DNA of 32,000 bases from Candidatus Electrothrix yaqonensis (GCA_047651235.1 CP178758.1:2880001-2912000), one strand, 5' to 3'; positions 2,198-28,008 are shown, counted from the first letter of the stretch. Notes: a model not told the origin generated them from the sequence alone. Numbers and translations: made by a program.

Positions 2198-2304
2198 TAT
2201 AGCTGGAGCAGTATAAACTGAATACAGGATCAGCTATCTGAAAGGCGTGAAGGCAAAACTTATGCCTCTTGTGGGCATATTCAAATTATGTTGCTCCAGC
2301 TATA
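2198..2304. repeat. 13-bp perfect inverted repeat (TATAGCTGGAGCA / TGCTCCAGCTATA) separated by 81 bp, next to the RBS of the split gene
   Basis: Arms at 2198-2210 and 2292-2304 are exact reverse complements. The inner arm lies 14 nt upstream of the ATG at 2184 on the minus strand. Confidence 0.5.
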
Positions 2305-2845: not shown

Positions 2846-3067
2846 ATGGAAACGTTACCTGCCCAAATGACAAAAGAGGAGCTGATTGAGACGATAGAGA
2901 ATATTGTTGAAAGAAAACTCGCTGAGTTTATCGAGAGAATCACAGAAAATGAACTCAGGCCTGAGGTGACGGACCGTCTGCTTGCTCAAAAAAAGCAGGT
3001 GGCCTCCGGGGAACGCGGACAGCTGCTTAACCGGATAGCTGAAGAGCTTGACCTGGTCGGCATATAA
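2846..3067 (+). CDS. Putative type II antitoxin (small acidic protein)
   Basis: 73-aa ORF preceded by gagaggaaatgag. Its stop overlaps the start of the downstream RelE/ParE-like ORF (TAATG, 1-nt overlap), which is classic TA coupling. No specific family recognised. Confidence 0.55.
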   Translation: METLPAQMTKEELIETIENIVERKLAEFIERITENELRPEVTDRLLAQKKQVASGERGQLLNRIAEELDLVGI

Positions 3068-3264
3068 TGTATGAAATTCGGATTCTGGATGAAGCTGTCC
3101 GTGATTTAAAACGCCTGGATAAATCTGTCGGACAAAGAATTGTTCAGAAGATATCGTGGGTTGCAGAAAATTTTGACAAGATCAACAAAGAACAGCTCTG
3201 CGGTGACCTTTCCGATTTCTACACAAGACCTCCTGCAGAACTGCCTGTTCTTCTCAGGCGGTGA
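3067..3264 (+). pseudogene. RelE/ParE-family toxin, 3'-truncated by IS insertion at about 3226
   Basis: MYEIRILDEAVRDLKRLDKSVGQRIVQKISWVAENFDKINKEQLCGDLSDFY matches the usual RelE/ParE N-terminal pattern (..A..DLKKLDK....RI..K...L.EN......L.G.L.g.Y). The expected continuation (.LRVGDYR.IY..) is replaced by IS-derived codons (TRPPAELPVLLRR*). Confidence 0.7.
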
Positions 3265-3293
3265 GGTTTTTCCCTTTTTCAAAATTTTCCGCT

Positions 3294-3938
3294 TCAGGCA
3301 GCTTTCTTCATTTTCCGTGCCGCAACCTTCATATTCACTATGCCGGATATGATATTTTTCTTTATATTATGGCCTTTAAGCCTGTTCCGGTATGTTTCCG
3401 ACATGATTTTAAATACCTTCACCTCTCTTATGACATGCTCAACTTTGATACGTTTTTTCGATAAATCAAGATTATATGCCTTCTGTTCGGCGGTCAGTTC
3501 ACCGTTCCGGGGCTTTTTAAAGGGAATTTCGGCGCGCCGGTCATATGCCGCGATTCCCTGATATCCGCTGTCGGCCTTCTTCGGAATACCGTGAAAACGC
3601 TCCCGCCCCTTCTGTTCCTTATATATCCTGAAATCATGAACACTTCCGGGATACGACGCCGAAACCGAAAAAATCCGTCCGTCGGGACCGGCGGTAAACT
3701 GCGTTCCGAGCGTGTGTTTTCCCTTCTTTCCGCTGTAATACTTCTTCTGTCCTTTCTTCGGGCGCTGAACCGGCTGTTCCGTCGCATCGATTATCAGGTA
3801 TTCCGCATCTTCCCGTGTGATTTCACGCTTTTTTTCAATATGAATCACCCGTACCGCGATTTTTTCCATCCGTTTCACTGCGCGCATCACCGTCGTCTCA
3901 TCGGAATCGAAGAAAAAACTGAGGAACTCATATGTCAC
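3294..3938 (-). CDS. IS5-family (DDE_Tnp_4-like) transposase catalytic part (orfB), -1 frame relative to orfA
   Basis: Candidate DDE residues sit in ..LIIDATEQPVQRP.., ..KKADSGYQGIA.. and ..RIKVEHVIREVKVFKIM... The frame is open upstream to about 3975 (..LIYYRCYVTYEFLSFFFDSDETTV), which continues the orfA sequence logically. This is either a programmed -1 frameshift or a 1-nt lesion. Confidence 0.7.
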   Translation of the reverse strand: MTYEFLSFFFDSDETTVMRAVKRMEKIAVRVIHIEKKREITREDAEYLIIDATEQPVQRPKKGQKKYYSGKKGKHTLGTQFTAGPDGRIFSVSASYPGSVHDFRIYKEQKGRERFHGIPKKADSGYQGIAAYDRRAEIPFKKPRNGELTAEQKAYNLDLSKKRIKVEHVIREVKVFKIMSETYRNRLKGHNIKKNIISGIVNMKVAARKMKKAA

Positions 3939-4162
3939 GTAACAACGGTAATAGATAAGCGAAGACTTCGCAGGAGCATGGCGAGAAGGTGGTTTTCAGC
4001 TCCTTCCAAGTTGTGCTTTCTCCCGCCCTTTTCAAAATTATCTCTCCGCTCTTCCCATAAAGGGCGGATCTTTTCCGTCATTCCGTTGAAAAGATCAATA
4101 TCGACACCGGTCAGACGGCGGAATGTTTCAGGGCGGCGGGAGAGTTTTTCGAATGTGAGCAT
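3935..4162 (-). CDS. IS5-family transposase, N-terminal HTH part (orfA)
   Basis: MLTFEKLSRRPETFRRLTGVDIDLFNGMTEKIRPLWEERR...HLLAMLL. GGAGG lies upstream of the ATG at 4162; an alternative upstream start exists at 4234. The ORF ends at a stop inside the overlap with the -1 frame that carries the DDE domain. Confidence 0.6.
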   Translation of the reverse strand: MLTFEKLSRRPETFRRLTGVDIDLFNGMTEKIRPLWEERRDNFEKGGRKHNLEGAENHLLAMLLRSLRLSITVVT

Positions 4163-4235
4163 GATTTTCAGACCTCCGGGGTTGATAATCGAAAAAGTGA
4201 CCGAAAAAATATCAGCATCCGCCGTTTCTGTCAAA

Positions 4236-5252
4236 TCACCAAGTTTTGCAGGAGGTCTGATAGACCTGCCATATCTGCAGATTGGTTAAAAGTGCCCACT
4301 TGATGCCTGAATACGCACCATACGAGGTTGCCTGAAATATCTGTTTATCACGCAATGCCATTCCGGCCCGTTTCACTTCGACAACAAGCACATCGTTATC
4401 GTCCACAGTCAGAATATAGTCAGCCTTTCGGCCCTGTATCTTTTGTTCAGCTTTAATTTCCTCCATTTTATACCCGAAGATATCCATAAACATCCTGTCC
4501 AGGATCATTCGCGTATTGCTTTCATTGATTTTCTGTTCAACTGCGGATTGAACATACGGGATGAATTGGACGATACCTTTTCGGAGAGCATGTGTTTTCT
4601 CCGTGAGAATCTGCTGCTGGGAACGTCTGGTTCGTTTTAATCCAGCAGCTATATTTTCTTCGGAAGATTCAGTTCCCTCTTCCTGGTCCGCATCGATATC
4701 GACACCAAACTGAGAAGCCAGAGCATCCAGTCCGCCATTGAATCCCTGCCCGACCGACCGAAACTTCCAACTATCCTGGTGCCTGTATATCTCGCCCAGC
4801 GTTAAGGCAATCTCCCGATTTGCATTTTTTACTTCATAACAGACAAGTTTCTGACCCTTAAACCCTTTTTCAAGGATTTTTATGAAGATCTGATCCACCA
4901 TGCTGAAATTCTGCTGCCGCTCAACAGCATGATATATCGTCAGGACAATCACGACCTTTTCTATTTCTTCGGAGAGTTTTGACAGGCAAATGTGAAACTC
5001 GCTGTCATGGCGCAGATTCTGCGGCGAGCAATCCAACAAGAGTGCGTTTTCCTGATCAGCGGTCTGATTGTAAAAGATAAAATCTCTGTCACTTCGGACT
5101 GTACCGTCCTTTTTCAGCAGAAAAGCACTGGCATCCAGCTCAAAATCATCGCTGCGGTTCTTTGTATGCCAGCCCAATGCGACCACGATATCATCTGTTT
5201 TGGAACCACTGCCGCTGATAATGCAGTTGCCTCCCCGCTCCAATGTATTCAT
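4236..5252 (-). CDS. Divergent TerD-domain protein fused to a C-terminal PD-(D/E)xK (HsdR-N / restriction-endonuclease-like) domain; the last codons derive from the IS
   Basis: The N-terminal ~185 aa has the TerD-family layout (..VVALGWHT..FELDASAFLLKKDGTVRSDRDFIFYNQ...EIYRHQDSWKFRSVGQGFNGGLDALASQFGVDI) but lacks the GDNLTG.G.GD.E calcium-site motif. An acidic and helical linker follows. Then ..RKADYILTVDDNDVLVVEVKRAGMALRDKQIFQATSYG..IKWALLTNLQIWQVY shows the D..(E)VK core plus the LTNG-like strand typical of HsdR N-terminal nuclease-fold domains. AGGAG RBS present. The final codons (the third base of the Gln codon, then TSCKTW and the stop) fall inside the IS terminal repeat (4239-4258). Confidence 0.75.
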   Translation of the reverse strand: MNTLERGGNCIISGSGSKTDDIVVALGWHTKNRSDDFELDASAFLLKKDGTVRSDRDFIFYNQTADQENALLLDCSPQNLRHDSEFHICLSKLSEEIEKVVIVLTIYHAVERQQNFSMVDQIFIKILEKGFKGQKLVCYEVKNANREIALTLGEIYRHQDSWKFRSVGQGFNGGLDALASQFGVDIDADQEEGTESSEENIAAGLKRTRRSQQQILTEKTHALRKGIVQFIPYVQSAVEQKINESNTRMILDRMFMDIFGYKMEEIKAEQKIQGRKADYILTVDDNDVLVVEVKRAGMALRDKQIFQATSYGAYSGIKWALLTNLQIWQVYQTSCKTW

Positions 5253-5326
5253 TTTTCTCTCCTGAAGACAGTATGTTTTCTCCCGCTGCGCAGATTTTTC
5301 CTGACATCCGATATCGCCGGACCAAA

Positions 5327-5965
5327 TCAGGTCACGATATTAATCTCCGGCGGCGGAGGCGGCAGTTCGTCCAATGTGGAGACATCCTTTTTACTCAGGT
5401 CAATTTTCTGGCTGCTTGAGCTGACGCTTGCGGAAATCCACTGGAAGAATTTTTTGATTGTCTCGGCATCAAGCGTGTCAAGCCGGACAATAACTTCAGT
5501 TATTTCCTTCAGCACATCAATTTTCGCTTTTGCCCCGGCAGCACAGGCTATTATCATGCCCGGTTTCAGTTCCTTGAGCTCCTGCAGAATGCTGCGCCAT
5601 GCATCTGTCGGGCCGCCGTCGGTCATGAGGAAAATAAGGGGCTTCCAGTCACCTTTCCGTTCCGGCGTGGTTTTGATAACCTCTTCACGGATTTTCTCTG
5701 CCGTCAGTTTTAACGCAGCTCCTAATGACGTGGTGCCCTGCGCCCGGATTTCCGGCGGCTGAAACGTGATCAGGTCGGTGAGCGGAACAATCTGTTGCGC
5801 ATCCGTATTAAAGGTGATGACGCTGAGAAAGGCTGTTTCCAGGGCATAGGGATCCTGGCGCAGGGTTGAGGCCAGAATCTGCACCCCGCTGTTTACAGCG
5901 TCAATCGGCTCGCCATGCATGGAGCCTGAGTTATCCAGCACAAGGTAGACAGGAAGGCGTCGCAT
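5327..5965 (-). CDS. terY: TerY-type von Willebrand factor A (vWA) domain protein
   Basis: MRRLPVYLVLDNSGSMHGEPI.. carries a MIDAS DxSxS motif, followed by ..GTTSLGAAL.. and ..LIFLMTDGGPTD... The size (212 aa) and layout match TerY. AAGGAGA RBS present. Confidence 0.8.
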   Translation of the reverse strand: MRRLPVYLVLDNSGSMHGEPIDAVNSGVQILASTLRQDPYALETAFLSVITFNTDAQQIVPLTDLITFQPPEIRAQGTTSLGAALKLTAEKIREEVIKTTPERKGDWKPLIFLMTDGGPTDAWRSILQELKELKPGMIIACAAGAKAKIDVLKEITEVIVRLDTLDAETIKKFFQWISASVSSSSQKIDLSKKDVSTLDELPPPPPEINIVT

Positions 5966-6054
5966 TGCATATTCTCCTTAAAAGAATAGGTAGATATAAC
6001 AAGTAAACAAGATAAAGCAGAAGGACAGACAGCTCCGCGTGGTGATAATATGGT

Positions 6055-6088
6055 AACAATGCCGCCGGGTCGGGGCAGCGGCATTGTT
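6055..6088 (-). other. Perfect 11-bp-stem hairpin in the terD-terY intercistronic gap
   Basis: AACAATGCCGC (6055-6065) and GCGGCATTGTT (6078-6088) flank a 12-nt loop. No U-tract follows on the transcribed (minus) strand, so it is not a canonical terminator. Confidence 0.4.
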
Positions 6089-6111
6089 AATCTGATTTGA
6101 TCCGGCCGGTG

Positions 6112-6699
6112 TTATCCGGCACTCAGCCCATAGGTGGCGCAGGCAGCTGCCAGCCCGCCGGAATATCCTTGGCCCACAGCAGTGAACCGCCATTCCCCGC
6201 CCTTTTTGTAGACCTCACCGAATACCATCGCTGTTTCCATGGAATAATCCTCGGTCAGGTCAAAGCGGACAATCTCCTGATTATCATCATCATTGACAAT
6301 GCAGATAAAGGCATTGCTCACCTGGCCGAAATTCTGTCCACGCCTGTCAGCGTCATGAATCGTGCAGACAGCGGCTATTTTTTCCACATCCGGGGCCTTA
6401 AGCTCCAGTTCATGCAGATCGACCTTGATAATTTCATCAGCTCCGCTACCGCCGCCGGTCAGGTTATCGCCCATATGTTCGATAGCCCCGTCTGCCCCGG
6501 TGAGGTTATTATAAAAAATAAAATCCTGATCACTTCTGGCCTTGCCAGCCGCATTCAGCAGAAAGACCGAGGCATCCAGATCAAAGTCCTCCCCGTCCGT
6601 GACCCGTTCATCCCATCCCAGGCCGATGGAAATTTTCGACAATCCGGGAGCTTCTTTGGATAACGAGATTCTGCCGCCTTTTTCCAGTGAAATGCCCAT
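6112..6699 (-). CDS. terD: TerD-family stress protein (canonical)
   Basis: MGISLEKGGRISLSKEAPGL..IGLGWD...DFDLDASVFLL..SDQDFIFYNN...GDNLTGGGSGADEII.V.L...FGEVYKKGGEWRFTAVGQGYSGGL. Both TerD calcium-site motifs are present. AGGAGG RBS present. Confidence 0.9.
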   Translation of the reverse strand: MGISLEKGGRISLSKEAPGLSKISIGLGWDERVTDGEDFDLDASVFLLNAAGKARSDQDFIFYNNLTGADGAIEHMGDNLTGGGSGADEIIKVDLHELELKAPDVEKIAAVCTIHDADRRGQNFGQVSNAFICIVNDDDNQEIVRFDLTEDYSMETAMVFGEVYKKGGEWRFTAVGQGYSGGLAAACATYGLSAG

Positions 6700-6757
6700 A
6701 ATGCAACCTCCTTACTTCTTTGTACGAATAATCTACTCTGCTTCGGTCAAAAACATC

Positions 6758-7342
6758 TTACAATGAGGGTTTGATAATCGGTAACAGCTTATCAAAGGTT
6801 CTGCCTGATCCCCAATCGCCAAGCGCTTTGAATTTCCAGTCACTGTTGTGGCGATAGAGCTTGGCGATAACAAGGCCCGTGTGTCCACCTCCCTGCACGC
6901 TGAGATCATACTTTGCAATAACATTACCCGTTTTATGATCCTTTAAGAGACAAAACGCATTGGGAATCCCGTCAAACGAGTCGCTGGAAAAGCTGTTGAC
7001 CGTGAAAACAAGGGTGGAAATATGTTTCGGAACAGCATTGAGCCGGACAACAATCTCTTCATTCGGATCGCCTGCTTGGCCCCCGCCTGTCAGGTCATCT
7101 CCGGTATGCAGGATCGAGCCGTCCTGACTTTTAAGCTGCCGAAACCAGACAGCATCCTGCAGGTTTTTATTTTCGTCAAACAGCAGACAGGAGGCATCCA
7201 GATCAACGTCCACCATTTTGGTGCGCCCCAGAAATCCTTTGGTCTTTTTCTGCCCCCAACCGAGTCCGAGGACAGCATCCGTTAAACTGGGAGCCTCTTT
7301 TGCGAGGGAAATGTTGGCGCCTTTTGTGAGCTTAATAGCCAT
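6758..7342 (-). CDS. terZ: TerZ-like TerD-family protein
   Basis: MAIKLTKGANISL...GLGWGQKKTKGFLGRTKMVDVDLDASCLLFD...AVWFRQLKSQDGSILHTGDDLTGGGQAGDPNEEI.V.L...FTVNSFSSDSFDGIPNAFC...GGHTGLVIAKLYRHNSDWKFKALGDWGSGRTF. The basic K-K-x-GF insertion and the WFR/FTVNSF/NAFC motifs are characteristic of TerZ. AAGGAG RBS present. Confidence 0.8.
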   Translation of the reverse strand: MAIKLTKGANISLAKEAPSLTDAVLGLGWGQKKTKGFLGRTKMVDVDLDASCLLFDENKNLQDAVWFRQLKSQDGSILHTGDDLTGGGQAGDPNEEIVVRLNAVPKHISTLVFTVNSFSSDSFDGIPNAFCLLKDHKTGNVIAKYDLSVQGGGHTGLVIAKLYRHNSDWKFKALGDWGSGRTFDKLLPIIKPSL

Positions 7343-7628
7343 GACAGCACTCCTTTTGGACTAAATTAAATAATTTCAAACTACTTAAAAGATAATTGTC
7401 TACATACTGAGACGGTATTTGTCAAGCATTATTGTCTGCTGCTGCTTTTTACGCCCTCTGTTTTAAACGCAGAAAAAAGCTGGCCAAGTTGATTGCTCAG
7501 ACAGCTGAAGCATTACCATCGGATATTATGCAGGATGCTGTGTTGTATTTTGCAGAGGGAAAAAAGGCAGCACGAGGTAAGAGAAAGACCGCAGACAAGA
7601 GGAGAAGGAGGAACGGATCAGAAAAGTA

Positions 7629-8324
7629 TCAGGGCTGCCAGCGGTACCCCATGCCATATTCAGAACGGATTGCTTTGAAGTCCGGGTCAATTTCATGAAA
7701 TTTATCCCGTATCCGGCGGATATGGGCTGCAATGGCATTGTTGGTGACAATAACATTGGCCGCCTCCATGAGCTGCTCATGATTTTTTACATGCCCGGGA
7801 CGTTTGGCCAGACAGAGCAGTATCCAGAATTCCGTCAGGGTAAGGCTGATCGGTGTTCCCTGCCAGTAGACTTCCTTGCGGTCTTCATCAATCCGCAGTT
7901 CCTGGTGTTCAATGATTTTGTTTTCCGTATTGCTGCTGCTGCGCAACGCCTCCACAGTGCGAAACATCGCGGAAATGCGGGCAGGAAGGAAGTCCAGAGT
8001 CGTGGTATCCTTGGTCAGGTAATCCCAGGCCCCGAGCCGTAGGCCGGAAACCCGGTCCAAGTCAGAGTTACGGGCAGTCAGAAAAATAATGGGGATAACC
8101 GGAGACAGGGTGCGCAGATGCTGGCAGAGGTCAAAGCCGCCCGCTATATCCTCGCCGAGCATGACATCCAGTATGGCGAGATCAGGCAGTGAGCGGTTAA
8201 AAGCGGCCATTGCTTCAGGTTTGCTGCTGTAGGCGGTTACCTCGTAGCCTTCGCGGTGCAGAGCCTGAGCATAGTTGGCCTGCAGTCGCGGGTCATCTTC
8301 AACAAGAGCAATGCGGTAGGTCAT
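7629..8324 (-). CDS. OmpR/PhoB-family response regulator (REC + winged helix); no kinase gene adjacent
   Basis: REC motifs: IALVEDD, PDLAILDVML, IIFLTAR, DYLTKD. The C-terminal trans_reg_C pattern reads ..ISLTLTEFWILLCLAKRPGHV...LME.........AIAAHIRRIRDKF......I.SEYGMGYRW. Confidence 0.9.
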   Translation of the reverse strand: MTYRIALVEDDPRLQANYAQALHREGYEVTAYSSKPEAMAAFNRSLPDLAILDVMLGEDIAGGFDLCQHLRTLSPVIPIIFLTARNSDLDRVSGLRLGAWDYLTKDTTTLDFLPARISAMFRTVEALRSSSNTENKIIEHQELRIDEDRKEVYWQGTPISLTLTEFWILLCLAKRPGHVKNHEQLMEAANVIVTNNAIAAHIRRIRDKFHEIDPDFKAIRSEYGMGYRWQP

Positions 8325-17122: not shown

Positions 17123-18928
17123 ATGTCTGATATATCAAAGATTCTTATCGTGGATGATGACCTGACCTTTGTCAGGGAATTGTGCGATGTCCTGTCGGCA
17201 TACAGTCAGTATGACGTACTGACTGCCACCAACCGGGGCGACGAGGTGTTTGCTCTGAAAAAAGAGAAGATAGCGGTTCTTGTTGTCGATTTGAGCGCCG
17301 GTAATCTCGATGTTCTTTTTCTGCTTTCTCTTGTCTCCACCTCGTACCGGCATGTCCAGTGTATTGTTATGCTCCGGGAGGAGCATCCTTCCGTGAAAGC
17401 AGTCCAGGACTGTTTTCTGAAAGATTCCATCTTTCTGTATCTTGTCAAACCGTCCAATTTGGAGACCATCGGCTGTGCCGTGCTCGAAGCGCTGCAGCGG
17501 CTGGATGAGAACGATTATACGCCCGGAATTTCTGCCGGAAAGATTGTTTCGTTTCTTGAGGCCCAGGAAAAGAGCTGTCAGGTTGTGGTCAAGTACGGCA
17601 GTAAAAAAGAGGGGATTCTTCATTTTGACCGCGGCATGCTGATCAATGCGTCCTGCGGCAATAAGCAGAGCGTGGAGGCGGCTCTGGAAATTTTTGAATG
17701 GCCACCTCTCGCTTTTACTGTTGAAGAGGCGGATAGGCAGGTTGAGCAGCGTCTGACCCTGAAAGATCTGAGAACCGTCCGGGTGACCTCGCGACTGAAA
17801 AGAGAGGCTGCCGACAAGCAGGCAGTCGGCAACGGCGGCAGTGTCTGCACTGTGAATGCTGCCGGGCAGAACATCAATCTGTTTATTGTCGATGACTCCA
17901 GAATGATGCGCAAGGTTATCGCCAATATTTTCAAGGATCATCAGGTAGTGAAGGTGGTCGGCGAGGCCGAGAACGGAGAAGAGGCCCTGCAGATCATTCC
18001 CCAGCTCAAGCCGGACGTGGTGACCCTTGATGTGGAAATGCCAGTCATGGACGGGCTGACCACCATCAAACACCTGATGATTCAGGCACCCACGCCCACA
18101 GTGATGCTCAGCGCCATGACCCTGGAAGGAGCTGATGTCACCTTTAATGCCCTCAAATACGGGGCTGTTGATTTTGTGGCCAAACCGTCCAACACCGGGG
18201 AGGTTGATCTGCAGGAACAGACCAGGGAAATTGAAAGAAAGGTGCGTCTGGCTGCAGAGGTCGAGATTGAGGCGGTCCGGTATGTCAGGGCGGTGAGTCA
18301 GGAAAAAAAAGACGCTCATGCCTCGGCCCTTGCCGGAAAAAAATGTGAACAGCTTGTTGCGGTCGGGGCGGCGGAAGGAGGCTACGGCGCGCTGCTCAAG
18401 CTGCTTCCTCACCTGTCGGCCCAGGTTCCGGCGGCCTACTTTGTCATGATGTACACTCCGTCCCGGCATCTGGATTCTTTTGTCCGCTATATGAATAAAT
18501 TGTCGCCCCTGATGATCCGGCGGGCCGAGCATAATGCGGTGGTGGAGGCCGGGGTCTGCTATTTTGCTTCGGGCGAGGAATACCTTACTGTGCATGAAGG
18601 TGACGGCGGCCTGGTGCTGCATGTTTCCAAAGCGCCCTTTGCCACCCGCAGAGGCTCGGTGGATATGCTGTTTTTTTCCGTGGCCGAGCGGGTGCGGGAA
18701 AAATCCCTGGCTGTTATTCTCTCCGGTATGGGCGAGGACGGCTCTGAAGGCATGGAGGAAATTCTCCGGGTCGGCGGTACCGGCATTGCCCAGGACCCGG
18801 CTGTGAGTCTGTACCGGGAGATGCCGGTGGCGGTATCTTCCCGTTGCCCCGAAGTAAAAGTTCTTTCCGATGCGGAGATTCCGAAAAAGATTGAAGAGGC
18901 GCTTGCCGGGCACACAGCTGCCTCGTAA
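17123..18928 (+). CDS. REC - DUF4388 (PATAN-like) - REC - CheB-like methylesterase-fold protein with a degenerate catalytic triad
   Basis: REC1: ILIVDDD..VLVVDLS..LVKPS. Then ..KSCQVVVKYGSKKEGILHFDRGMLINASCGNKQSVEAALEIFEWPPLAFTVEE (DUF4388 pattern G.i.f..G.l..A......G.eAl..i..W..g.F). REC2: LFIVDDSRMMRK..PDVVTLDVEMPVMDG..MLSA..DFVAKPS. In the CheB-fold domain, GASTGG is GAAEGG (Ser to Ala) and QHMP is MYTP (His to Tyr), while GMGEDG keeps the Asp. Confidence 0.85.
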   Translation: MSDISKILIVDDDLTFVRELCDVLSAYSQYDVLTATNRGDEVFALKKEKIAVLVVDLSAGNLDVLFLLSLVSTSYRHVQCIVMLREEHPSVKAVQDCFLKDSIFLYLVKPSNLETIGCAVLEALQRLDENDYTPGISAGKIVSFLEAQEKSCQVVVKYGSKKEGILHFDRGMLINASCGNKQSVEAALEIFEWPPLAFTVEEADRQVEQRLTLKDLRTVRVTSRLKREAADKQAVGNGGSVCTVNAAGQNINLFIVDDSRMMRKVIANIFKDHQVVKVVGEAENGEEALQIIPQLKPDVVTLDVEMPVMDGLTTIKHLMIQAPTPTVMLSAMTLEGADVTFNALKYGAVDFVAKPSNTGEVDLQEQTREIERKVRLAAEVEIEAVRYVRAVSQEKKDAHASALAGKKCEQLVAVGAAEGGYGALLKLLPHLSAQVPAAYFVMMYTPSRHLDSFVRYMNKLSPLMIRRAEHNAVVEAGVCYFASGEEYLTVHEGDGGLVLHVSKAPFATRRGSVDMLFFSVAERVREKSLAVILSGMGEDGSEGMEEILRVGGTGIAQDPAVSLYREMPVAVSSRCPEVKVLSDAEIPKKIEEALAGHTAAS

Positions 18929-19127
18929 GAAAAAAAACGACCGGCTGCGGTATTCGTTGTAATTAAATTAGACTGGAGCTATTTTATAGGGTAAAATTAG
19001 GAGATAAATATAAAAAAGCAGAAGGAGGTTGCAACATGTTTTTAGTGCGGCGGAAGCGGGCGCCGGGCGGGGCTGTGTGGGCCGACCCGACGGGACAAGG
19101 GAATTCCAGACAGGAGGAAAGAACAGT

Positions 19128-22100
19128 ATGAGAGGCCAAACAGGACAATTATCCAGAAAAGGATGGGGACTTCGGGCCAAGCTGGTTATGCTGCTGCTGC
19201 TCGTTGGTCTTATCCCCTTTCTGGCGAACGCGATTATTGACCAGCTGGCATCTGCCGACGCTCTGACGGCTCGTGCTCAAGCCCAGCTTGAGTCTATTCG
19301 TGAGATTAAGAAAAACCAGATCGCCTCTTATCTTGAGGAGCGTGCCGGTGATACTGTGGTGCTGGCCAGGATTATTCAGTCGCTCCGCCGGGAGGGTATT
19401 GCCAAGCTGAAAGCGATTGAGGGAACAAAAGTTTCGGCCATTCGGCGTTATTTCGGTAAACGTGTAGCCGATATTGCGGTGTCGGCCAAGAACCTCACCG
19501 CTGTCGCTGCCATCCAGGAGATGGAAGAAGCCTTTGAGGAGGAGGGAAAAAGGGTCGGCGGCAGTCTGTGGAACGGCTACAAGGAGAAGTACAGTGCCTG
19601 GTTCTCCGGATTCCGGGATGAGCACGGGTATTATGACGTATTTCTGATTGCGCAGGACGGTGATGTTGTCTACACCGTTGCCGAAGAAGCCGATCTGGGG
19701 CAGAATCTGGTCTCCGGTTCTCTGCGGGATTCAGGTCTGGGCAGGCTTTTCTCCAAGGTTATGAAGGAAGGAAAGGCTGTTATAGAGGACTATTCCTCCT
19801 ACGCCCCCTCAGGGGGAGAGCAAGCCTCCTTTATCGGAGCACCGGTTCAGGATGGCGGCAGAACAGTCGGCGTCCTGGCGATGCAGCTGTCTACAGAGGA
19901 AGTTAATCGTATTGTTCAGGAGCGTGAGGGGTTGACCAGTACCTTTGAGTCCTTTCTCATCGGTGGCGATGCGGGAAATATTAGCCTCCACAGCGACCGT
20001 ACAGTCAAGGAAGGTAAAATCGGCGACGCATATTCCGGCCCTGATGCTCAGGCTGCGCTGGATGGCAAGACGGGTATCCTCTATAAAGTCGGCCCGACTG
20101 GCCTCTTTGAGCTGTCTTCCTATACACCGGTTGACGTTGCCGGACTGCACTGGGGTATGCTGACCACAGGTGCGCTGACCGAAGTTGTTGTGCCCAAAGC
20201 GGAAGGAGAGGCGGACGACCTGCTGAAACAGTATCAGAAAGCCTACGGGTACTATGATATTTTTCTGTTTGATCCGACCGGCTACTGTTTTTATTCTGCA
20301 GAGAAGGAGGCTGATTACCATACCAATCTTCTCACCGGCAAGTACAGCGACACCAACCTCGGAACGGCGGTCAAAAAAGTGGTGGGCACCAGAAGAACGT
20401 CCATTGTTGATTATCAACTTTATGCGCCGTCCGGCGCACCGGCCTCTTTTCTGGCTTCTCCGGTTATAGAGGAAGGTGAACTCGTGGCAGTCGTGGGTGT
20501 GCAGATTGCAGACACGGATATTCAGGAGATTCTGGACGAAACAACCGGTCTGGGCAATACCGGTGAGACCTTTCTGGTCGGCTTCAGTGATTTTGTTCCC
20601 CGTTCCAATTCCAGGAAGGGTCTCAAACTCCTCCAGGACCAGGCTCTGAAAACCGAGCTGATTGATGCAACGTCGGAGACAGGTCAGGCGCAGATCAGGC
20701 GCGCTCCTGACTACGTCGGCGACGAGATTTTCGGTGCAGCGGTTCCGCTGGATTTGAAAAAGAAGCTGGGTGCCGACTTTGACTGGATTCTGATCGCCAA
20801 GATTGACACCAAGGAAGCTCTGGAGGCTGTTACCACAATCCGTAACCGTGCTATCGCTCTGGGTTTTGCGTTCATTGTCGTTGTTGCAGCTATTGCCTGG
20901 TTCGTCGGCGGGGCTTTTGCCCGGCCTATTGTTGCCATTGCCGAAGTTGTCCGTCAGGTTGCTGCGGAACGTGATCTGACGCTGGATGTTCCTGTGGCCT
21001 CCAAAGACGAAGTAGGACAAATGGCAGGCGAGTTCAACAACATGCTGCAAGAGCTGAACCAGGCGTTTACTGAGGTACAGACTGTATCCCAGGCTGTTGC
21101 CAAAAACGCCGAGGACGTGGCCGGACGTGCTTCCGCCAACAGGGATCGTGCTGAGGTCGAGGCCCGTCAGACCGAGAAAACCAGAGAGCTGCTGGAGACA
21201 ATGGGTGAGACAGCCGGTCAGGTTGCCGAGGGTGCTTCAGCCCAGCAGGCAAGTGCTCAGAAATCCCAGCAGACCATTGCCGAGCTCCTGAAATCTATGG
21301 ACACCGTGAGCGACGCTGTTATCAAACAGTCCGAAGAAGCTGAGACCGCTACTGACCGTGTGGGTGCGATGGGTGAAACCGGTGCTCTAGTTGTGGCCAC
21401 CTCTGCCGAGCAGGGTAAAACAGTTATGCAGGTGACCGCATCCATGAACGAGATCACTGCATCCGTACAGAACATGGGGCAGGCAGTAGAAGCAGCCACC
21501 TCCCAGGGTCAGGAAGCCCTGCAGGCTGCCAGTGACGGTAGGGCTGCTGTGGAAAACACGGTTGCCGGTATGCGCGCCATTGCAGAATCCTCCGGACAGA
21601 TCTCTGAAATCATTGGCGTTATTACAGAAATCGCCGAGCAGACCAACCTGCTTGCTCTGAACGCCGCCATTGAGGCTGCCCGTGCCGGTGCGCATGGTAA
21701 GGGTTTTGCGGTTGTTGCTGACGAGGTCGGTAAACTGGCCCAGCGTTCCTCTGAAGCTGCCAAGGAGATTACCCAGCTGATCAAGGATTCTACTTCCAAC
21801 GTTGAGGCAGGAACCAAGTATTCCGAAGAGCTGCAGAGCGCTCTGGCCAAGATTGATGCCAGCGGTCGTAACAACATGCGCTCCATTGAGGAGATCGCCT
21901 CTGTTGCCCAGGTCGTTGAAGCGGATATCCAGAATGTCCAGACCCTGGTTCAGGAACTGAACAAACTGGCCGAAGAAATCTCCAAGATGGCCGGTGAGCA
22001 GGGTGCCCGTCGTCAGGCTGCTGAGACAGCGCTGAGCTCCATGGTCCAGCAGTCCCAGATCATCAGTGCGCTGGTATCTGAAGCAAGTGCAGGTTCCAGC

Positions 22101-22325
22101 TCCATCGACACTGAGATGCGCGACATTGTGCAGCGTACTGACAGGCTGAACGAACTGGTTGCCTCCCAGAGGGAGCGTTCCCAGAATGCGGTTCAGATTG
22201 CTCAGCAATCCCAGGAGGGTGCCCAGAAAACAGTACAGGGAGCCGGTGTGGTCGTGTCCATTACCGACGATCTGCGGTCTGCTTCCGACAGGCTGCGTGA
22301 ACAGGTTGAGCAGTTCAAGCTGTAA
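19128..22325 (+). CDS. Methyl-accepting chemotaxis protein with a duplicated Cache-like periplasmic sensor, HAMP and a very long signalling domain
   Basis: The start was chosen at the ATG at 19128 (AGGAGGA RBS); the ORF track extends to 19029. TM1 is ..[19 protein letters not shown]. Two ~200-aa paralogous modules are present ([33 protein letters not shown].. and [32 protein letters not shown]..). TM2 and HAMP follow (P-x-x-x-[14 protein letters not shown]). The hairpin tip has the [38 protein letters not shown] signature. Confidence 0.9.
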
Positions 22326-22358
22326 GCCGGACCTGTTCTGTATTAGGCTTGTATAGCT

Positions 22359-22405
22359 GCATCACTCCGCGTGCTATTCGGTGTGTCCGGTGCGCGGGGT
22401 GATGC
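22359..22405 (+). terminator. Hairpin 34 nt after the MCP stop codon (possible weak terminator or attenuator)
   Basis: 13-bp stem GCATCACTCCGCG / CGCGGGGTGATGC (one G:U pair) with a 21-nt loop. It is followed by a T-rich but interrupted tract, GTTTCTGTCTGCTGTTCTG. Confidence 0.3.
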
Positions 22406-22522
22406 GTTTCTGTCTGCTGTTCTGCGGAAAACAGGTAAACAGCAGAAAACAAAGTACTCTGAAAAAAAACGGCTGACAGGGTCAGCCGGGTAACTGTATA
22501 TGCGGAATAAGGGGGAAAATTC

Positions 22523-23044
22523 ATGGCAGAGACATTTGCGGCTGACCGGGCCGAAAGAATAGCGGACCAGGATGAAAAAGAACAGCTTATGCAGCTGGTC
22601 GGCTTCACGATCGGCAGGGAACACTTCGGGGTTGATATTCTGATGGTCCAGGAGATTATCCGTTCCGCGCCGATTACTTCTGTGCCGAATTCACCGGATT
22701 TCATTGAAGGGGTTATCAATCTGCGCGGCAATATTATTCCGGTGATTGAGCTGAGAAAACGGTTGAACCTGTACAGGAAGGATATTGCGGCAAAGGATGC
22801 CTGGATACTGATTCTTGATATTAACAGCCGGGTGACCGGGTTTATTGTCGATTCCGTTACCAGGGTTCTGAAAATTATTGAAAGTACGATTGAACCGCCG
22901 CCTGAAGTCGTGGTGGCCGGACTGGGCAATCAGTACATCAAGGGTGTGTGCGATATCGGAGAAAATCTGCTGATTCTGCTTGACTTCAACCGTATTCTTC
23001 TTGCAGACGAGTTACAGCAGCTTAAGGCAATAAATGGGGAATAA
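22523..23044 (+). CDS. cheW: CheW coupling protein
   Basis: ..QLVGFTIGREHFGVDILMVQEIIRSAPITSVPNSPDFIEGVINLRGNIIPVIELRKRL... shows the canonical CheW-domain pattern. 173 aa. Confidence 0.9.
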   Translation: MAETFAADRAERIADQDEKEQLMQLVGFTIGREHFGVDILMVQEIIRSAPITSVPNSPDFIEGVINLRGNIIPVIELRKRLNLYRKDIAAKDAWILILDINSRVTGFIVDSVTRVLKIIESTIEPPPEVVVAGLGNQYIKGVCDIGENLLILLDFNRILLADELQQLKAINGE

Positions 23045-23048
23045 TCAG

Positions 23049-23414
23049 ATGAGTAAGCGAGTTCTGATAGTCGATGATTCATCCATGATGCGCAAGATGA
23101 TCGCAAAGCTGCTGCAGCCGCCGGGTCATATTGTTGTCGGCCAGGCAAAAAATGGCATTGAGGCCATTGAAATGTATAAATCGCTGCAGCCCGATATTGT
23201 CACCATGGATATCACCATGCGCGAGATGGACGGACTTGCCGCAGCAAAGGAAATTTTACAGTATGACAGCTCGGCGCATATCATTTTTCTTTCCAATCTT
23301 GATGAGGATATCTATCGGGAAGAGGTGGAGCGTCTCGGTGCCATGGGGTTTGCCAGCAAGCATAAGGCGAGAGAAATCCTTGAGATGATAGAACCGTCTG
23401 AAGGTGGTGCGTAA
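23049..23414 (+). CDS. cheY: CheY-like single-domain response regulator
   Basis: MSKRVLIVDDSSMMRKMI...PDIVTMDITMREMDG...IIFLSN...GFASKHK. The acidic pocket, the phospho-acceptor Asp and Ser/Lys positions are present. An alternative start at 23034 overlaps the cheW stop. Confidence 0.85.
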   Translation: MSKRVLIVDDSSMMRKMIAKLLQPPGHIVVGQAKNGIEAIEMYKSLQPDIVTMDITMREMDGLAAAKEILQYDSSAHIIFLSNLDEDIYREEVERLGAMGFASKHKAREILEMIEPSEGGA

Positions 23415-23611
23415 CTTCCGGCTTTTGTGCACTATGAACGGCTTGTGTCCTTTGCCGTTTTTCGGAAAATATCCGGCCTGATGTCTGCAGCGGTCTTAGG
23501 GGTTGCTGTGCGGCTGCGTATGAGGGTGCCGGAAAAATTTTGCGGACAGTTGACCGGGAGGCGGTTTCGGCGGGGCACCATAAAAGATCATCTTAAAACG
23601 GGTTTTCGCCT

Positions 23612-24244
23612 ATGTCTACTTTATTTCAGGTAGCAGATGATGTAAGTCTGAAGACCAGGACACAATTTTTCTTTATGCTTACAATCTTGCTAACCGCGAT
23701 TGCGGCAGCCGGTCTTCTGTATGAATATGTCAGTCGCGGCCCGGAGGCGGGAAGTATTGTTGTCAGTTCCGTCATGCTTGTCATCATCTTTTTGCTGGGA
23801 GTGCAGATTGCCGCCATGATGTATTGGATGCGCAGCATTATGCAGCCGCTGGCTGAGGTGGGAGCAGCGACACGGTTGATGGCGGACGGGCATCTTGAAA
23901 CCTTTAATCAGATCAGACAGGCAGATGAAATCGGTCTGCTGGGCGAGAATATTAATGATCTGGCGGTCAATATGCAGGAGGTGCTCCTTTTTATCTGGAA
24001 CCACAGCCAGATGAGTCGTGAGTTGCTGGAGCATATAGCCGGAGAACTGAACGTTACCCTGGAAGACGTTGCCCCGGAGCCGGAACAGCTCTCTGCTGGA
24101 ATACAGAAGTATCTTCTTGAAATGTACCGGAATAATGAGGATCTCAGATCCATCGTGCTGTCATTCAGTTATTTTGAAATCAAGCTGGAAAATGAAAAAA
24201 TGGTTTCTGATTATGAACAGGAAACCGGAGTGAGCGTTTCGTGA
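23612..24244 (+). CDS. Small membrane protein: 2 TM helices + HAMP domain, no recognisable sensor or output domain
   Basis: TM1 is FFFMLTILLTAIAAAGLLYEYV and TM2 is IVVSSVMLVIIFLLGVQIAAMMYWM, with only about 8 residues between them. HAMP-like region: RSIMQPLAEVGAATRLMADGHLETFNQIRQADEIGLLGENINDLAVNMQEVL. An uncharacterised ~90-aa acidic tail follows. Confidence 0.65.
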   Translation: MSTLFQVADDVSLKTRTQFFFMLTILLTAIAAAGLLYEYVSRGPEAGSIVVSSVMLVIIFLLGVQIAAMMYWMRSIMQPLAEVGAATRLMADGHLETFNQIRQADEIGLLGENINDLAVNMQEVLLFIWNHSQMSRELLEHIAGELNVTLEDVAPEPEQLSAGIQKYLLEMYRNNEDLRSIVLSFSYFEIKLENEKMVSDYEQETGVSVS

Positions 24245-24434
24245 ACCTCGTGAACCGGACAGGATGGCATTTCCGCATCGGATTTCAATATGCTCCGGTG
24301 CCCCTGCAGGCAATTATAGGAAAGATATACAGAAAAGAACCTGATCAGGTGAATCAGGTGAGCGGATTGCAGCGGAAACTGATTCCGGAACCTTTAACCA
24401 AATAAACGGGCAGACTCTTGATAAGGTGGCAAAT

Positions 24435-27400
24435 ATGATTGATTCATCAATGTTACCGGATTTTATTGTTGAGGCGGCTGAACATCTCGAAGAGATGGAA
24501 AGCAGTCTTCTCCGGCTTGAACAAGATCATGAAGATAAAGAGGTGCTGGATGATATTTTCCGTTCGATTCATACCATCAAGGGAGCTGCTCAGTTTGTCG
24601 GCATTGAGCGGGTTTCTGAACTTTCCCATAAACTTGAGAATCTGCTTGATCTGCTCCGCAGGGATGAACTCGATCTGACCGGCAATGTAACAGATCTGCT
24701 CATTGCCGGAAAAGATAGGATAGCGCTGCTGGTTGATGAGCTTGAGCGTACACAGGCTGAGGAAACGGAAGTTGATGATCTGGTGGAACAGATAAAAAAT
24801 ATTGTTGAAGGCGATGCTGCGGACCCTGCAGATACTGCGGATGCCGCTGAGGTACCTGACGAGGCGGTCCCGACCGCAGATGATCCGGAGACTGTGCTCT
24901 CGGAAGAACCCCGTCAGGGGAGCCTTGCCGAGGAGAGCATGGCTGATGAATACGACGAGGAACTCTACAATATTTTTCTCCAGCAGCTGAAGGAAAATAT
25001 ACCCTTTCTCTATGCCCAGACCGTAGAACTGTCCATTTCGGTGGACAAGCAGGACGTCCTGTACCGGTGTAAAGATTCTATCAAGAGTCTCAAGTCCTCA
25101 GCCAACTACATGGGGTATGAAAAGCTGACCCAGCATTACTCCAACTGGCAGCGTGCCATTGATCAGGCCGTGGAACAGCTTTCCGGCGGGAAGATGCCTG
25201 ATCTCGGATTTATGCAGGATTATCTGGATGAGGTGATCCGTTCATTCCCGCAGGCTATGGAAGGGTATTCCCAAGAGGATGCGGAGGAGGATAAGGATGC
25301 TGTAGCAGGAAATATCGGTGCGTCCATTGATACAGAGCTTGATTCCATCTTTGCCGACGATGATGAACCTATTGCAGGGGTTGACGGAACGGGTGATGAA
25401 ACACTATCTACGATAGAAGAAACAGCTGATTGGGAAACGGAGGATGAGGAAGAACAAGGGATCGATCTGGATAAGGCCCTTGATTCTATTTTTGCTGGCG
25501 GACCGGAAGATTCGGGAGAGGATACGTCTGAGGCGGTTGGTGATGATGCCAAAATTTCGGGTGATGAAGGGATTTCTCCGCCCGAAAGCGGCAGAACGGA
25601 CAGGGAAATTATTTCTGACGGGACAGTTCCGCCGCTGGAATACGAGATCTCTGGAGATGAGTATGACGAAGAACTTATTTCTATTTTTCTGAAAAAATTA
25701 CAAACGGATACCCATTATATCCTAGGTCAGCTGAAAGATATCGGGTCCGGTGCTGATAAGCAGGCGGTTCTTGAACGCTGCGGAGATGCTGTCGGTCGGT
25801 TGGGAGCGTCAGCCAATTATATGGAGTATATTGGCCTGACAGCCTATTGTGATGTATGGCAGCAGACCATTGCTGACGAGCTGGTCGGATTATCCGGGGG
25901 AGATGAGCCTGATTTCAGCACCATGCAGGAATTCATCGATAAGGTTCTTCAAGTGTATCCCCAGATAGCGGAAACAAACGAAGACAGCAGTCCGGAAGAA
26001 GAGCTGCAGACTGCTGCGGATATCGCGGATGAAGAGAAGGTTGCGGAGACGACCGGAGCGGCGGAAAGTGCGGAAGAACAGGCTGCCGAAAAAGGGGAAC
26101 CTGACTCGGACGACTCAGACGGAGATGCTGATACCGAAAGTGAAGAAAGTAAAGCGCTTTTTGACAAACTGAGCAGCGCTCTTGACAGCGCCGAATACGG
26201 GGACAGTGTATCTTCTGATGAGGGGATGAACAGTGTTATCGGCGAAATGATAGACGTATCCGACCGGGAGGACGGAGAGCAGGCTGCAGCAGGCGGATCA
26301 GAACCTGAAGCCGATGCAGCTGTTTCTGCCGATGATGACAGCATAACACCTGAACAGCCTGAAAAGAAAGCGGAAAGAGCGGATTTGCTGGAGCAGGTTA
26401 TCGGTGAAGAAGTCGGAGACACCGGTATCACGGATGATGCCGAAGAGGATGAGTCAACACTGCAGGAGGAATCGGACGATATTGATGCTGAGGCGGAACC
26501 GGAATACGAAGCGGATCAGGTGGAGACACAGCAGCGCGGGAAAACGGAAAGTCCGGCAAGGAGGTCGCTTGCCCGAAGCAGCATCAGAGTGGATGCCGAG
26601 AAGATTGACTATCTGATGAATCAGGTCGGTGAACTGGTCGTCAGTCGAGCCTATTTTGCCCAGCTTGTCAACGAGATGCGTGGTCTGCAGCAGCAGCTCC
26701 TGGAAAACTCCGACATTTCGAAGGCGCAGCTCAAACCCCTGCAGGAATTTTCCTTCCGACTGAGTGAGGCCGGTGTCCATCTCGGTCGCGTGTCCAACGA
26801 GCTGCAGGAAGGCGTGATGAAGGTCAGGATGCTGCCCATTGATCAGCTTTTCAAGCGGTATCCGCGTCTGGTTCGGGATTTAATACATAAGACGGACAAG
26901 GACGTCAGACTTGTGACAAAAGGAGAGGAAACAGAGCTGGATAAAATGGTCATTGAGTCCATTTCCGACCCTCTGATTCATATTATCCGGAATGCTGTTG
27001 ATCACGGTATTGAAAGCATGTCGGAACGTCGGCGGGCAGGAAAGCCGGAACAGGGTACGCTTATTCTGGAAGCGTTTCATGAGAGTGACCATATTGTTGT
27101 GGAAATCACTGATGACGGCAGAGGACTTGATACAAAACGCATCAAAGCCAAGGCATTGCAGAAGGGGCTGATCCGTAAGGAGGAGCTGAAGCGGCTGTCT
27201 GAGCTGGAGCTGACCCGTCTGATTATGCTGCCCGGCTTCAGTACTGCGGAAACGACGACTGAAACCTCCGGCCGGGGGGTCGGGATGGATGTGGTCAAGA
27301 AGAATATCGAAAAACTGAACGGAACCGTTGAAATAGTTTCCGAGGCAGGCAAGGGAACCCGGCTGCGGATTAAAATTCCGCTGACTATGGCGATTATCCA

Positions 27401-27899: not shown

Positions 27900-28008
27900 G
27901 GAGGTAACCGAGACGGGCACACAGCAGATAATTCAGGGAGTTGGACGGCCAGGGCAGCGGAGTCATAAAATAACGTGGAGATTCCTGGGGGAGGGGGGAA
28001 GCTGCGGC

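Follow-up and report, generated by a model that had tools for sequence, protein, structure and literature searches.

The 32,000-nt stretch of the Candidatus Electrothrix yaqonensis YB6 genome analyzed here (the window) contains a cassette of Ter-type genes on the minus strand, numbered genes 1 to 4. The open reading frame (ORF) listing reproduced the arrangement given in a preliminary description of this DNA: four co-oriented genes encoding a TerZ-like TerD-family protein of 194 aa (gene 1, 7342-6758), a canonical TerD of 195 aa (gene 2, 6699-6112), a TerY-type vWA protein of 212 aa (gene 3, 5965-5327), and a TerD::PD-(D/E)xK fusion ORF of 338 aa (gene 4, 5252-4236), with gaps of only 58, 146, and 74 bp between them.

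Membership in the TerD family was evaluated with the Pfam profile PF02342, for which genes 1, 2, and 4 scored 152.9, 256.7, and 168.1 bits against a cut-off of 25.3 (E-values of 9e-45, 1.3e-76 over the full profile, and 1.9e-49, respectively). Gene 1 keeps the DLDAS motif and an acidic GDDLTGGG loop, and its top match among the enterobacterial ter plasmids is a gene annotated terZ (43% identity over 95% of the query). In addition, it shares 51% identity with the paralogue at the TerZ position on plasmid 1 of Aromatoleum aromaticum EbN1, and 84-94% identity with its orthologues in the related loci L081, L082, L084, and L091. Gene 2 carries a GDNLTGGG acidic loop, is 55% identical to the Aromatoleum TerD a/b, and has a ratio of nonsynonymous to synonymous substitution rates (dN/dS) of 0.05 against L084. 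In the paper on the Klebsiella pneumoniae TerD structure, an acidic GDN(R/L)TG-x-GDGDDE loop is said to bind Ca. The acidic loop reads GDNLTGGGSGADE in gene 2 and GDDLTGGGQAGDPNEE in gene 1. The TerD domain of gene 4 is devoid of this loop, and its LLLDC...SPQNLRHDSE segment aligns to THTGDNRTGEGDGDDE of the K. pneumoniae TerD (2kxt).

The product of gene 3 matched the Pfam models VWA (1.7e-10) and VWA_2 (4.9e-08), and its metal-ion-dependent adhesion site (MIDAS) is intact, with DxSxS present as DNSGS followed by T and then D. It is 57% identical to vWA1 of the Aromatoleum TerY-P operon, vs. 44-48% identity to the vWA domains encoded downstream in relatives, including the TerY_C-containing one (46% for vWA2). 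The Pfam vWA-TerF-like model gave 19.5 bits, under its cut-off of 29.4. On these comparisons, gene 3 is the orthologue of the vWA1 of TerY-P operons, with the features of a TerY-type vWA protein.

No terA, terB, terC, PP2C, or kinase gene was found among the window ORFs scanned with Pfam or by tblastn. The TerY-P triad is absent from the 32-kb window, with no TerY_C, PP2C, or kinase. Moreover, when the window was searched by tblastn with the gene 4 C-terminus, AIM24, vWA2, TerY_C, PP2C, and the kinase, the sole cross-match was to gene 3. Catalogued defense systems were assessed with the hidden Markov models (HMMs) of PADLOC-DB v2, which returned zero matches for genes 1-3 and a weak match for gene 4, to the N-terminal nuclease part of REase_MTase_IIG (2.3e-06). 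The preliminary description was thus upheld on several points: its domain calls (TerZ-like, TerD, TerY-type vWA with MIDAS, and TerD joined to a nuclease fold) agree with the Pfam results, the terZ match, and the DNSGS...T...D pattern; terA, terB, terC, PP2C, and kinase are indeed missing from the cassette; and the PADLOC search that it proposed left genes 1-3 unmatched, with only the weak REase_MTase_IIG match for gene 4.

The 5' intergenic region (7343-7628, minus strand), read by eye, contains a putative ribosome-binding site (AAAGGAG, 7 nt before the ATG) and a TTGACA-like hexamer at ~7425 that may serve as a promoter element. A consensus promoter and terminator scan of the cassette gave nothing decisive.

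The fusion protein encoded by gene 4

The product of gene 4, annotated as 'TerD family protein [Candidatus Electrothrix sp. YB6]' (exact match, 338 aa), comprises a TerD domain (aa 3-182, nt 5246-4707, minus strand), a basic disordered linker (aa 183-211), and a nuclease region (aa 212-331, nt 4619-4260, minus strand) that contains D278 (4421-4419), E292 (4379-4377), K294 (4373-4371), Q307, and Y311. The nuclease region was matched by Pfam HSDR_N_2 (aa 244-333, 2.8e-07), and the matches to this model in the analysis, another of which had an E-value of 3.1e-08, scored 31-34 bits against a cut-off of 25, indicating a PD-(D/E)xK fold.

The fold was further evaluated using an AlphaFold2 model of P0002, a full-length protein 88% identical to gene 4 (mean predicted local distance difference test score of 82.9 and predicted template modeling score of 0.73). 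The model consists of a TerD sandwich (1-181), a disordered basic linker (188-208), two helices, an alpha-beta-beta-beta-alpha-beta core (244-348), and a six-helix bundle (355-427) that has no Pfam match. The core is built from helix 244-258, strands 266-272, 275-283 (with D278), and 286-293 (with E292 and K294), helix 302-314, and strand 319-323. Foldseek matched the N-terminal domain to the TerD structures 3ibz and 2kxt (template modeling scores of 0.84 and 0.76, ~1e-17), and the C-terminal domain to BpuSI (3s1s, 2e-4) and HsdR (3h1t, probability 0.99; also 2w00). Furthermore, an alignment of 111 full-length homologues reaching down to ~40% identity showed that E244, E269, D278, Q307, Y311, T323, and N324 are invariant and that E292 and K294 are kept in 110 of the 111. 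The remaining sequence, P0026, has E292 and K294 swapped (VVKVEK for VVEVKR, alignment columns ~355-360), while the other 110 keep ExK. QxxxY is the motif of HsdR nucleases. The D...ExK...QxxxY pattern is therefore read as a putative active-site signature under strong constraint, and DNA cleavage is predicted. The HMM matches, the invariant residues, and the Foldseek results on the model all agree with the original suggestion of an HsdR-N-like PD-(D/E)xK domain.

The HMM match, the D...ExK...QxxxY pattern, the core topology, and the Foldseek matches to BpuSI and HsdR are shared with the N-terminal nuclease of type I HsdR and type IIG enzymes (HSDR_N_2; COG 'predicted type IV restriction endonuclease'). 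In contrast to these enzymes, the fusion has no helicase or translocase, methyltransferase, or specificity module, and it possesses an N-terminal TerD sandwich and a C-terminal six-helix bundle. It is also conceivable that the C-terminal domain is an inert PD-(D/E)xK fold used for DNA binding or protein interaction, and that the proteins are ordinary Ter stress proteins acting in tellurite resistance, oxidative stress, or envelope homeostasis. The modest HSDR_N_2 E-values are consistent with this idea, several copies of the fusion gene that lie alone adjoin lipid genes (Mla, diacylglycerol kinase, PgpA), and inactive REase domains are known, such as the Pfam NA-iREase1 family. However, an active site would be expected to show just such retention of D278, E292, K294, Q307, and Y311 in 110-111 of 111 homologues, with the swap in P0026 a single case, and an inert fold was judged improbable.

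The 3' end of gene 4 and the operon in relatives

Gene 4 is not a complete fusion gene. Among 240 relatives detected, nearly all are 415-440 aa long, vs. 338 aa here. In an alignment with 16 of them, gene 4 is free of indels up to ...LLTNLQIWQVY (residue 331) and then ends with QTSCKTW and a stop codon, where the relatives run ~100 conserved residues further, so that residues 332 to ~430, which form the last strand of the core and the helical bundle at the C-terminus, are missing. The genuine part of the truncated gene therefore spans codons 1-331 (4260-5252, minus strand), the alignment diverging after ...WQVY, and the seven-codon tail with its stop codon (4236-4259, minus strand) is encoded by an insertion sequence (IS). 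This is a 1033-bp IS5-family element (3226-4258, minus strand) with 17-nt terminal inverted repeats (3226-3242 and 4242-4258), and its transposase is split over two ORFs (3935-4234 and 3294-3938; Pfam DDE_Tnp_4, 2.1e-28). The point of divergence coincides with the inverted-repeat arm at 4242-4258, which the tail overlaps. Furthermore, two unrelated truncated genes flank the element, no target-site duplication was seen (tatc vs. tgtg as flanking bases), and tblastn found no trace of the lost gene 4 C-terminus in the whole 32 kb. Taken together, the missing duplication, the unrelated far flank, and the lack of any trace of the C-terminus indicate that the IS marks a rearrangement or deletion joint rather than a simple insertion.

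To place gene 4 in its original context, we compared the neighborhoods of its closest relatives, whose TerD parts are 53-91% identical to that of gene 4. The order TerZ-TerD-(vWA)-fusion is retained in five distinct loci (L081, L082, L084, L091, and L099), and in all five the operon runs past the fusion gene, reaching vWA::TerY_C in four and an identified PP2C in three. The full order in these relatives is TerZ-like, TerD, vWA, TerD::HSDR_N fusion, AIM24, vWA, vWA::TerY_C, PP2C_2, and, in one case, a kinase; L091 is without the first vWA and L084 without AIM24. AIM24 and then a vWA gene follow the fusion in L081, L082, L091, and L099. In L081, L082, and L091, vWA::TerY_C and PP2C come next; the sequence of L084 stops shortly after TerY_C, within an incomplete ORF that occupies the position of PP2C, and that of L099 stops within the first downstream vWA. 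Only L082 contains the kinase (500 aa with a Cys-rich C-terminus), which lies after an IS200 insertion and is followed by PgpA; this locus thus holds the entire triad, assigned by Pfam as vWA::TerY_C, PP2C_2, and Pkinase. L081, L084, and L091 cover the TerY_C and PP2C positions only, their sequences ending before any kinase. The downstream proteins of L082 gave no PADLOC-DB v2 matches other than generic kinase models on the kinase. The IS200-type Y1 transposase between PP2C and the TerY-P kinase in L082 (14915-15604) is an indication that this operon draws IS insertions in other genomes too.

The distal half of the operon was located elsewhere in YB6. An orthologue of vWA2 annotated YB6 (P0385, 89% identity to L084 vWA2) and a TerY_C protein annotated YB6 (P0127) are both assigned to the 3,738,687-bp contig that also carries the window protein. 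In addition, a short-read contig of the matching run (L154) carries Bax1-I, ParA, TetR, RND-MFP, a 25-codon AIM24 remnant (LLQTQIKGTGVVVLVSPVP), and vWA2, and a second short-read contig (L095) carries TerY_C and PP2C, so the triad is in part present elsewhere in YB6. The lost segment reaches from codon 331 of the fusion to about codon 156 of AIM24, of which only the 25-codon internal remnant is left.

These results point with high probability to a cassette that is the promoter-proximal part of an ancestral Ter/TerY-P-type operon of 8-9 genes, broken by the IS5-family joint in its nuclease gene. The ancestral order would have been TerZ-like, TerD, vWA1, TerD::nuclease with helical bundle, AIM24, vWA2, vWA::TerY_C, PP2C, and a Ser/Thr kinase with a zinc ribbon. 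Its 5' half would now lie in the window and its 3' half elsewhere in the genome, by an unrelated TetR/RND operon; as a whole, this structural and evolutionary explanation is considered very probable. With the operon split, the absence of PP2C and kinase from the window is a result of rearrangement and not of design.

The preliminary description had instead proposed a self-contained, compact four-gene defense module, in which Ca-binding TerD paralogues and a vWA scaffold would gate the nuclease without PP2C or kinase. The tight spacing and co-orientation of the ORFs, the lack of a PADLOC model covering the cassette, and the presence of the nuclease motif residues in the window copy are in line with this proposal. 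However, gene 4 is cut by the IS at codon 331, the operon continues past gene 4 in five of five relatives, and the downstream genes are found elsewhere in YB6. Moreover, none of the 51 distinct loci of the fusion gene (described below) holds exactly these four genes. The same description had proposed a search for recurrence of the four-gene order across unrelated genomes; the order was confined to close Desulfobulbaceae and cable-bacteria relatives (at least 53% identity in the gene 4 TerD part), where it never ends at gene 4. A four-gene module is therefore very improbable.

A misassembled IS joint in an operon that is truly contiguous was also considered, as IS copies are classic misassembly sites and the short-read Logan contigs break near repeats. 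The YB6 genome, however, is a closed circular assembly of Oxford Nanopore (ONT) and Illumina reads from a clonal enrichment (PMC12093952), which makes misassembly unlikely. The independent short-read contig L154 also joins vWA2 to the AIM24 remnant and RND-MFP, and not to the fusion gene, indicating that the operon is disrupted on that side too. An assembly artefact is accordingly the least credible of the explanations considered, with hardly any probability left to it. The genome paper itself mentions neither tellurite genes, nor defense, nor IS elements (PMC12093952).

Three observations nevertheless weigh against the split-operon explanation. First, the 331 kept codons of gene 4 show a dN/dS of 0.15 against L084, the same value as that of the vWA gene and no higher, which would fit a recent event or else continued use of the truncated protein. 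Second, the YB6 TerY_C protein is 74% identical to that of L084, vs. 82-89% for the other genes, and could belong to a second, paralogous locus. Third, the data on the two YB6 halves fit inversion, transposition, or deletion plus a paralogue alike. No decay is detectable after the truncation, which is probably recent.

In the P0002 model, the truncation point falls inside strand 327-334, and strand 340-348 and the entire helical bundle are lost; the truncated protein is probably unstable or unregulated. With half a beta-strand, the last core strand, and the six-helix bundle gone and the usual partner AIM24 destroyed, the effector arm in this window is most likely inactive. The ORFs for TerZ, TerD, and vWA1 are undamaged, and their products may continue to function as generic Ter stress proteins.

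Distribution and possible function of the fusion family

TerY-P is described in papers citing the 2012 study of Anantharaman, Iyer and Aravind as a predicted metal-sensing phosphorylation switch tied to restriction or DNA-processing modules, and TerY-P-like triads are also described there as stand-alone anti-phage systems (PMC11090510, PMC4978471, PMC3710099). The TerY-P anti-phage system of Gao et al., 2020 is presented in one of these papers as a TerY vWA, a PP2C, and a Ser/Thr kinase fused to an oligonucleotide/oligosaccharide-binding (OB) fold (PMC11090510). The vWA::TerY_C, PP2C_2, and Pkinase triad in the relatives of the window resembles this system. Unlike it, the kinase of the relative ends in a Cys-rich, zinc-ribbon-like segment and not in an OB fold, TerY and PP2C of the relatives are unmatched by PADLOC and the kinase is matched by generic models only, and the window itself is without the triad. 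The classical terZABCDEF operon of IncHI2 plasmids and E. coli O157 (tellurite resistance and phage inhibition) likewise has TerZ and TerD paralogues; in contrast, the cassette is without terA, terB, terC (the membrane component), terE, and terF, and has vWA and nuclease genes.

The closest layout was that on plasmid 1 of Aromatoleum aromaticum EbN1, where PgpA-vWA1-TerD-vWA2-TerY_C-PP2C-kinase is divergent from TerD-TerD-TIGR00266(AIM24)-TerZ-like, followed by ATP-grasp, PRTase, and StiP. Ter clusters of this type with TerY-P are reportedly the class analyzed by Anantharaman, Iyer and Aravind in 2012. The same families occur in the same relative order, genes 1, 2, and 3 have orthologues there (51, 55, and 57% identity), and vWA2, TerY_C, PP2C, kinase, AIM24, and even PgpA are all found among the relatives of the window. 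The middle TerD of Aromatoleum, between vWA1 and vWA2, is replaced in these relatives by the TerD::PD-(D/E)xK protein with its helical bundle. The TerD domain of the fusion is 24% identical to this middle TerD vs. 35-37% to TerD a/b, indicating that it is not the orthologue of the middle TerD. Moreover, the cable-bacterial genes form one compact operon without ATP-grasp, PRTase, StiP, TerA, TerB, or TerC, and the window copy is truncated and split. Judged by gene content and order, the intact cable-bacterial operon is thus a compacted version of the known Ter layout, with the predicted nuclease fusion replacing one TerD paralogue.

The distribution of the fusion gene was evaluated by scanning metagenome contigs with a profile restricted to the C-terminal part. 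When the loci found earlier were included, 76 fusion loci were obtained, which collapse to 51 distinct ones. In a first scan of genome contigs based on the full-length alignment, the fusion had appeared in only 5 of 80 loci and generic TerD was dominant, because one of the two search patterns was the generic TerD motif DF[IV]FYNQ. The full Ter/TerY-P context was found in 5 distinct loci, AIM24 as the only such neighbor in 2, and one other Ter-type context in 3 (TerD-TerD-TerZ in L004, a TerY-P-type kinase in L005, and a TerZ-like gene in L139). About 41 distinct loci had the fusion gene without a Ter neighbor, and in 13 of them at least 3 kb of flank was available on both sides. AIM24 is the most recurrent neighbor: it lies 12-50 nt behind the fusion on the same strand in 6 distinct loci, 2 of them without any other Ter gene. 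When the ORFs flanking the solo fusions were clustered all against all and 123 neighbors were scanned with Pfam and PADLOC, no recurrent neighbor was dominant apart from AIM24 and Ter genes. The contexts of the solo fusions are heterogeneous, with housekeeping genes in Desulfamplus, Thiocystis, Methylovulum, and others. In four loci, defense genes lie nearby (HEC-01A/B with a type III methyltransferase; GmrSD with methyltransferase::Mrr; DUF262; bSEFIR), and two further solo loci are prophage-like, with Mu-like or tail genes. Co-localization with defense genes, which the preliminary description had proposed to test, held for four solo loci and failed for most contexts of the fusion, which are not defense islands. 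Among phage genomes, only plain TerD genes were found and not the fusion. This contextual evidence is suggestive of a defense role but not strong. The fusion family is uncharacterized and widespread, mostly occurs as a solo gene, and is often paired with AIM24.

Furthermore, a profile search of 1.84 billion representatives detected the nuclease-plus-helical module also without TerD, in proteins of 210-370 aa (2906 matches at E<=1e-3 and 82 at <=1e-30). P0311 and P0340 are fusions of the TerD-less module with a DUF5655 domain at the C-terminus, and this domain matches (7e-40) the C-terminal part of PDC-S18, a candidate single-gene system in PADLOC. Some TerD-less relatives of the module therefore share the DUF5655 part of PDC-S18; in contrast, the N-terminal part of PDC-S18 does not match the module, and the window protein has no DUF5655. 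As these domain combinations show, the module is shuffled among partners, candidate defense proteins among them, as is common for conflict-system effectors.

This distribution raises the possibility that the TerD::nuclease, often together with AIM24, acts autonomously as sensor and effector, perhaps as a nuclease of the type IV-like restriction or the abortive kind, and was secondarily inserted into the cable-bacterial Ter/TerY-P operon, the three upstream genes being generic Ter genes without a specific tie to it. In favor of such autonomy are the ~41 of 51 distinct loci without a Ter neighbor (13 with at least 3 kb on both flanks), the AIM24 gene placed directly behind the fusion even where no other Ter gene is present, the TerD domain that is not orthologous to the middle TerD that it replaced (24%, vs. 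37% to TerD a/b), the solo copies beside defense genes and in prophage-like loci, and the occurrence of the module without TerD or with DUF5655. On the other hand, in the clade of the window the fusion is always found within the TerY-P operon, flanked by vWA1 and vWA2, a placement suggestive of functional integration, and many solo contexts are housekeeping ones (Mla, diacylglycerol kinase, amino-acid metabolism). We regard autonomy as a serious possibility that stops short of being probable; it is compatible with the split-operon explanation and does not exclude it.

For the intact operon, the following mechanism is conceivable. The TerD paralogues that carry the loop, the three vWA proteins with a MIDAS, and the PP2C and kinase would detect a metal or stress signal and pass it on. 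Nucleic-acid cleavage is predicted for no component other than the TerD::nuclease, which would be held or gated via its TerD domain, probably with the participation of AIM24. The loop-less TerD domain may then serve as a regulatory handle that binds TerD paralogues, AIM24, or a small ligand and thereby gates DNA cleavage, with restriction, abortive killing, or the processing of damaged DNA as the possible output. Such a gated nuclease is proposed tentatively, with chances approaching but not reaching even. Sensing, gating, DNA cleavage, and defense are all steps that we infer, PADLOC models match no component apart from the weak and generic matches given above, and most contexts of the fusion gene elsewhere are not defense islands, all of which count against it. 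In a more far-reaching scenario, the TerD::PD-(D/E)xK protein and its helical bundle, in most cases followed immediately by AIM24, would constitute a previously undescribed nuclease module that is gated by a ligand or by Ca. It could work alone, as in the solo copies beside RM, GmrSD, HEC-01, and SEFIR genes and within prophage-like regions, or plug into a TerY-P switch in place of the middle TerD, the window being a recently inactivated example; this was considered somewhat unlikely. If true, Ter systems would have DNA cleavage as a direct output through it.

The window itself, a decayed locus in which the absence of PP2C and kinase is damage, matters little. What the comparison exposed is a recurrent, uncharacterized variant of the Ter operon in cable bacteria and relatives, with a nuclease fusion in place of a TerD paralogue, and a widespread TerD-nuclease family with an invariant predicted active site and tight pairing with AIM24. 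Connections between Ter systems and both phage inhibition and DNA processing have been drawn since 2012, and to our knowledge an effector has never been demonstrated. The TerD-tethered nuclease would be a concrete and testable candidate for the output of these systems.

Several individual loci of the family showed further features. In L114 (7604-9217) and L117 (1095-2720), the TerD::nuclease gene is immediately preceded on its own strand by an N6_N4 methyltransferase::Mrr_cat gene, which has GmrSD before it; in this gammaproteobacterial-type group, the pair may be an operon of two nuclease-bearing genes. In L005 (592-2583, Thiocystis minor), the fusion is followed directly by a kinase with 61% identity to the TerY-P kinase of L082, without other Ter genes, which hints at a direct kinase-nuclease link. 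A diacylglycerol kinase gene (two genomes) and genes for Mla-type lipid transport (two genomes) are found beside the solo fusions of L086 (Desulfamplus), L087 (Thiocystis violascens), and L085. In both L082 and Aromatoleum, the TerY-P operon has PgpA at its flank, so a phospholipid-metabolism neighborhood recurs.

Surroundings of the cassette

Directly upstream of the cassette and on the same strand lies a gene for an OmpR-type response regulator (7629-8324), which scored 307 bits against the NCBIfam model 'proteobacterial dedicated sortase system response regulator' (cut-off 335.7). This regulator is not conserved by the Ter operon in relatives. A large chemotaxis cluster (17123-29046) encodes two CheB-like methylesterase/receiver proteins, a methyl-accepting chemotaxis protein of 1098 aa (GAF, dCache, HAMP), CheW, and a CheA of 1157 aa. 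The other window genes encode a CAP-domain protein, cytochrome P460, a Fic protein, metabolic enzymes, and transporters, and no other recognizable defense gene was present in the window. A second IS, an ISAs1-like element (729-1766), carries a DDE_Tnp_1_assoc + DDE_Tnp_1 transposase.

On the far side of the IS5-family element, the ORF listing contains an antitoxin-like ORF (2846-3067, plus strand) followed by a 3'-truncated toxin-like ORF (3067-3225, plus strand), which is cut at about codon 53 and reads on into the IS to 3264. Neither ORF has a Pfam match, and the toxin-like one may be a relative of ParE/RelE, to judge from motif resemblance. The surroundings had been likened to a defense island in the preliminary description. 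That comparison did not hold: one of the two IS elements caused the truncation, the toxin gene is itself cut, and the remainder is chemotaxis, transport, and metabolism. The window is IS-peppered ordinary chromosome and not a recognizable defense island.

Two smaller repeats were observed on the same side. An orphan terminal inverted repeat of the IS5-family type, with one mismatch, is located at 2679-2694, ~150 bp upstream of the antitoxin-like ORF. The broken toxin-antitoxin pair therefore sits between two IS ends of the same orientation, which suggests an earlier IS event. In addition, a 107-bp element (2198-2304) with perfect 13-nt inverted repeats (TATAGCTGGAGCA) looks like a dispersed repeat resembling a miniature inverted-repeat transposable element. 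A 26-nt identity between the end of L095 and window positions 2198-2223 was considered as a linkage of PP2C to the window and rejected, as it is a copy of this short inverted-repeat-ended element. This other copy starts just downstream of PP2C in YB6 (L095 3178-3203), and the short-read contig ends in it.

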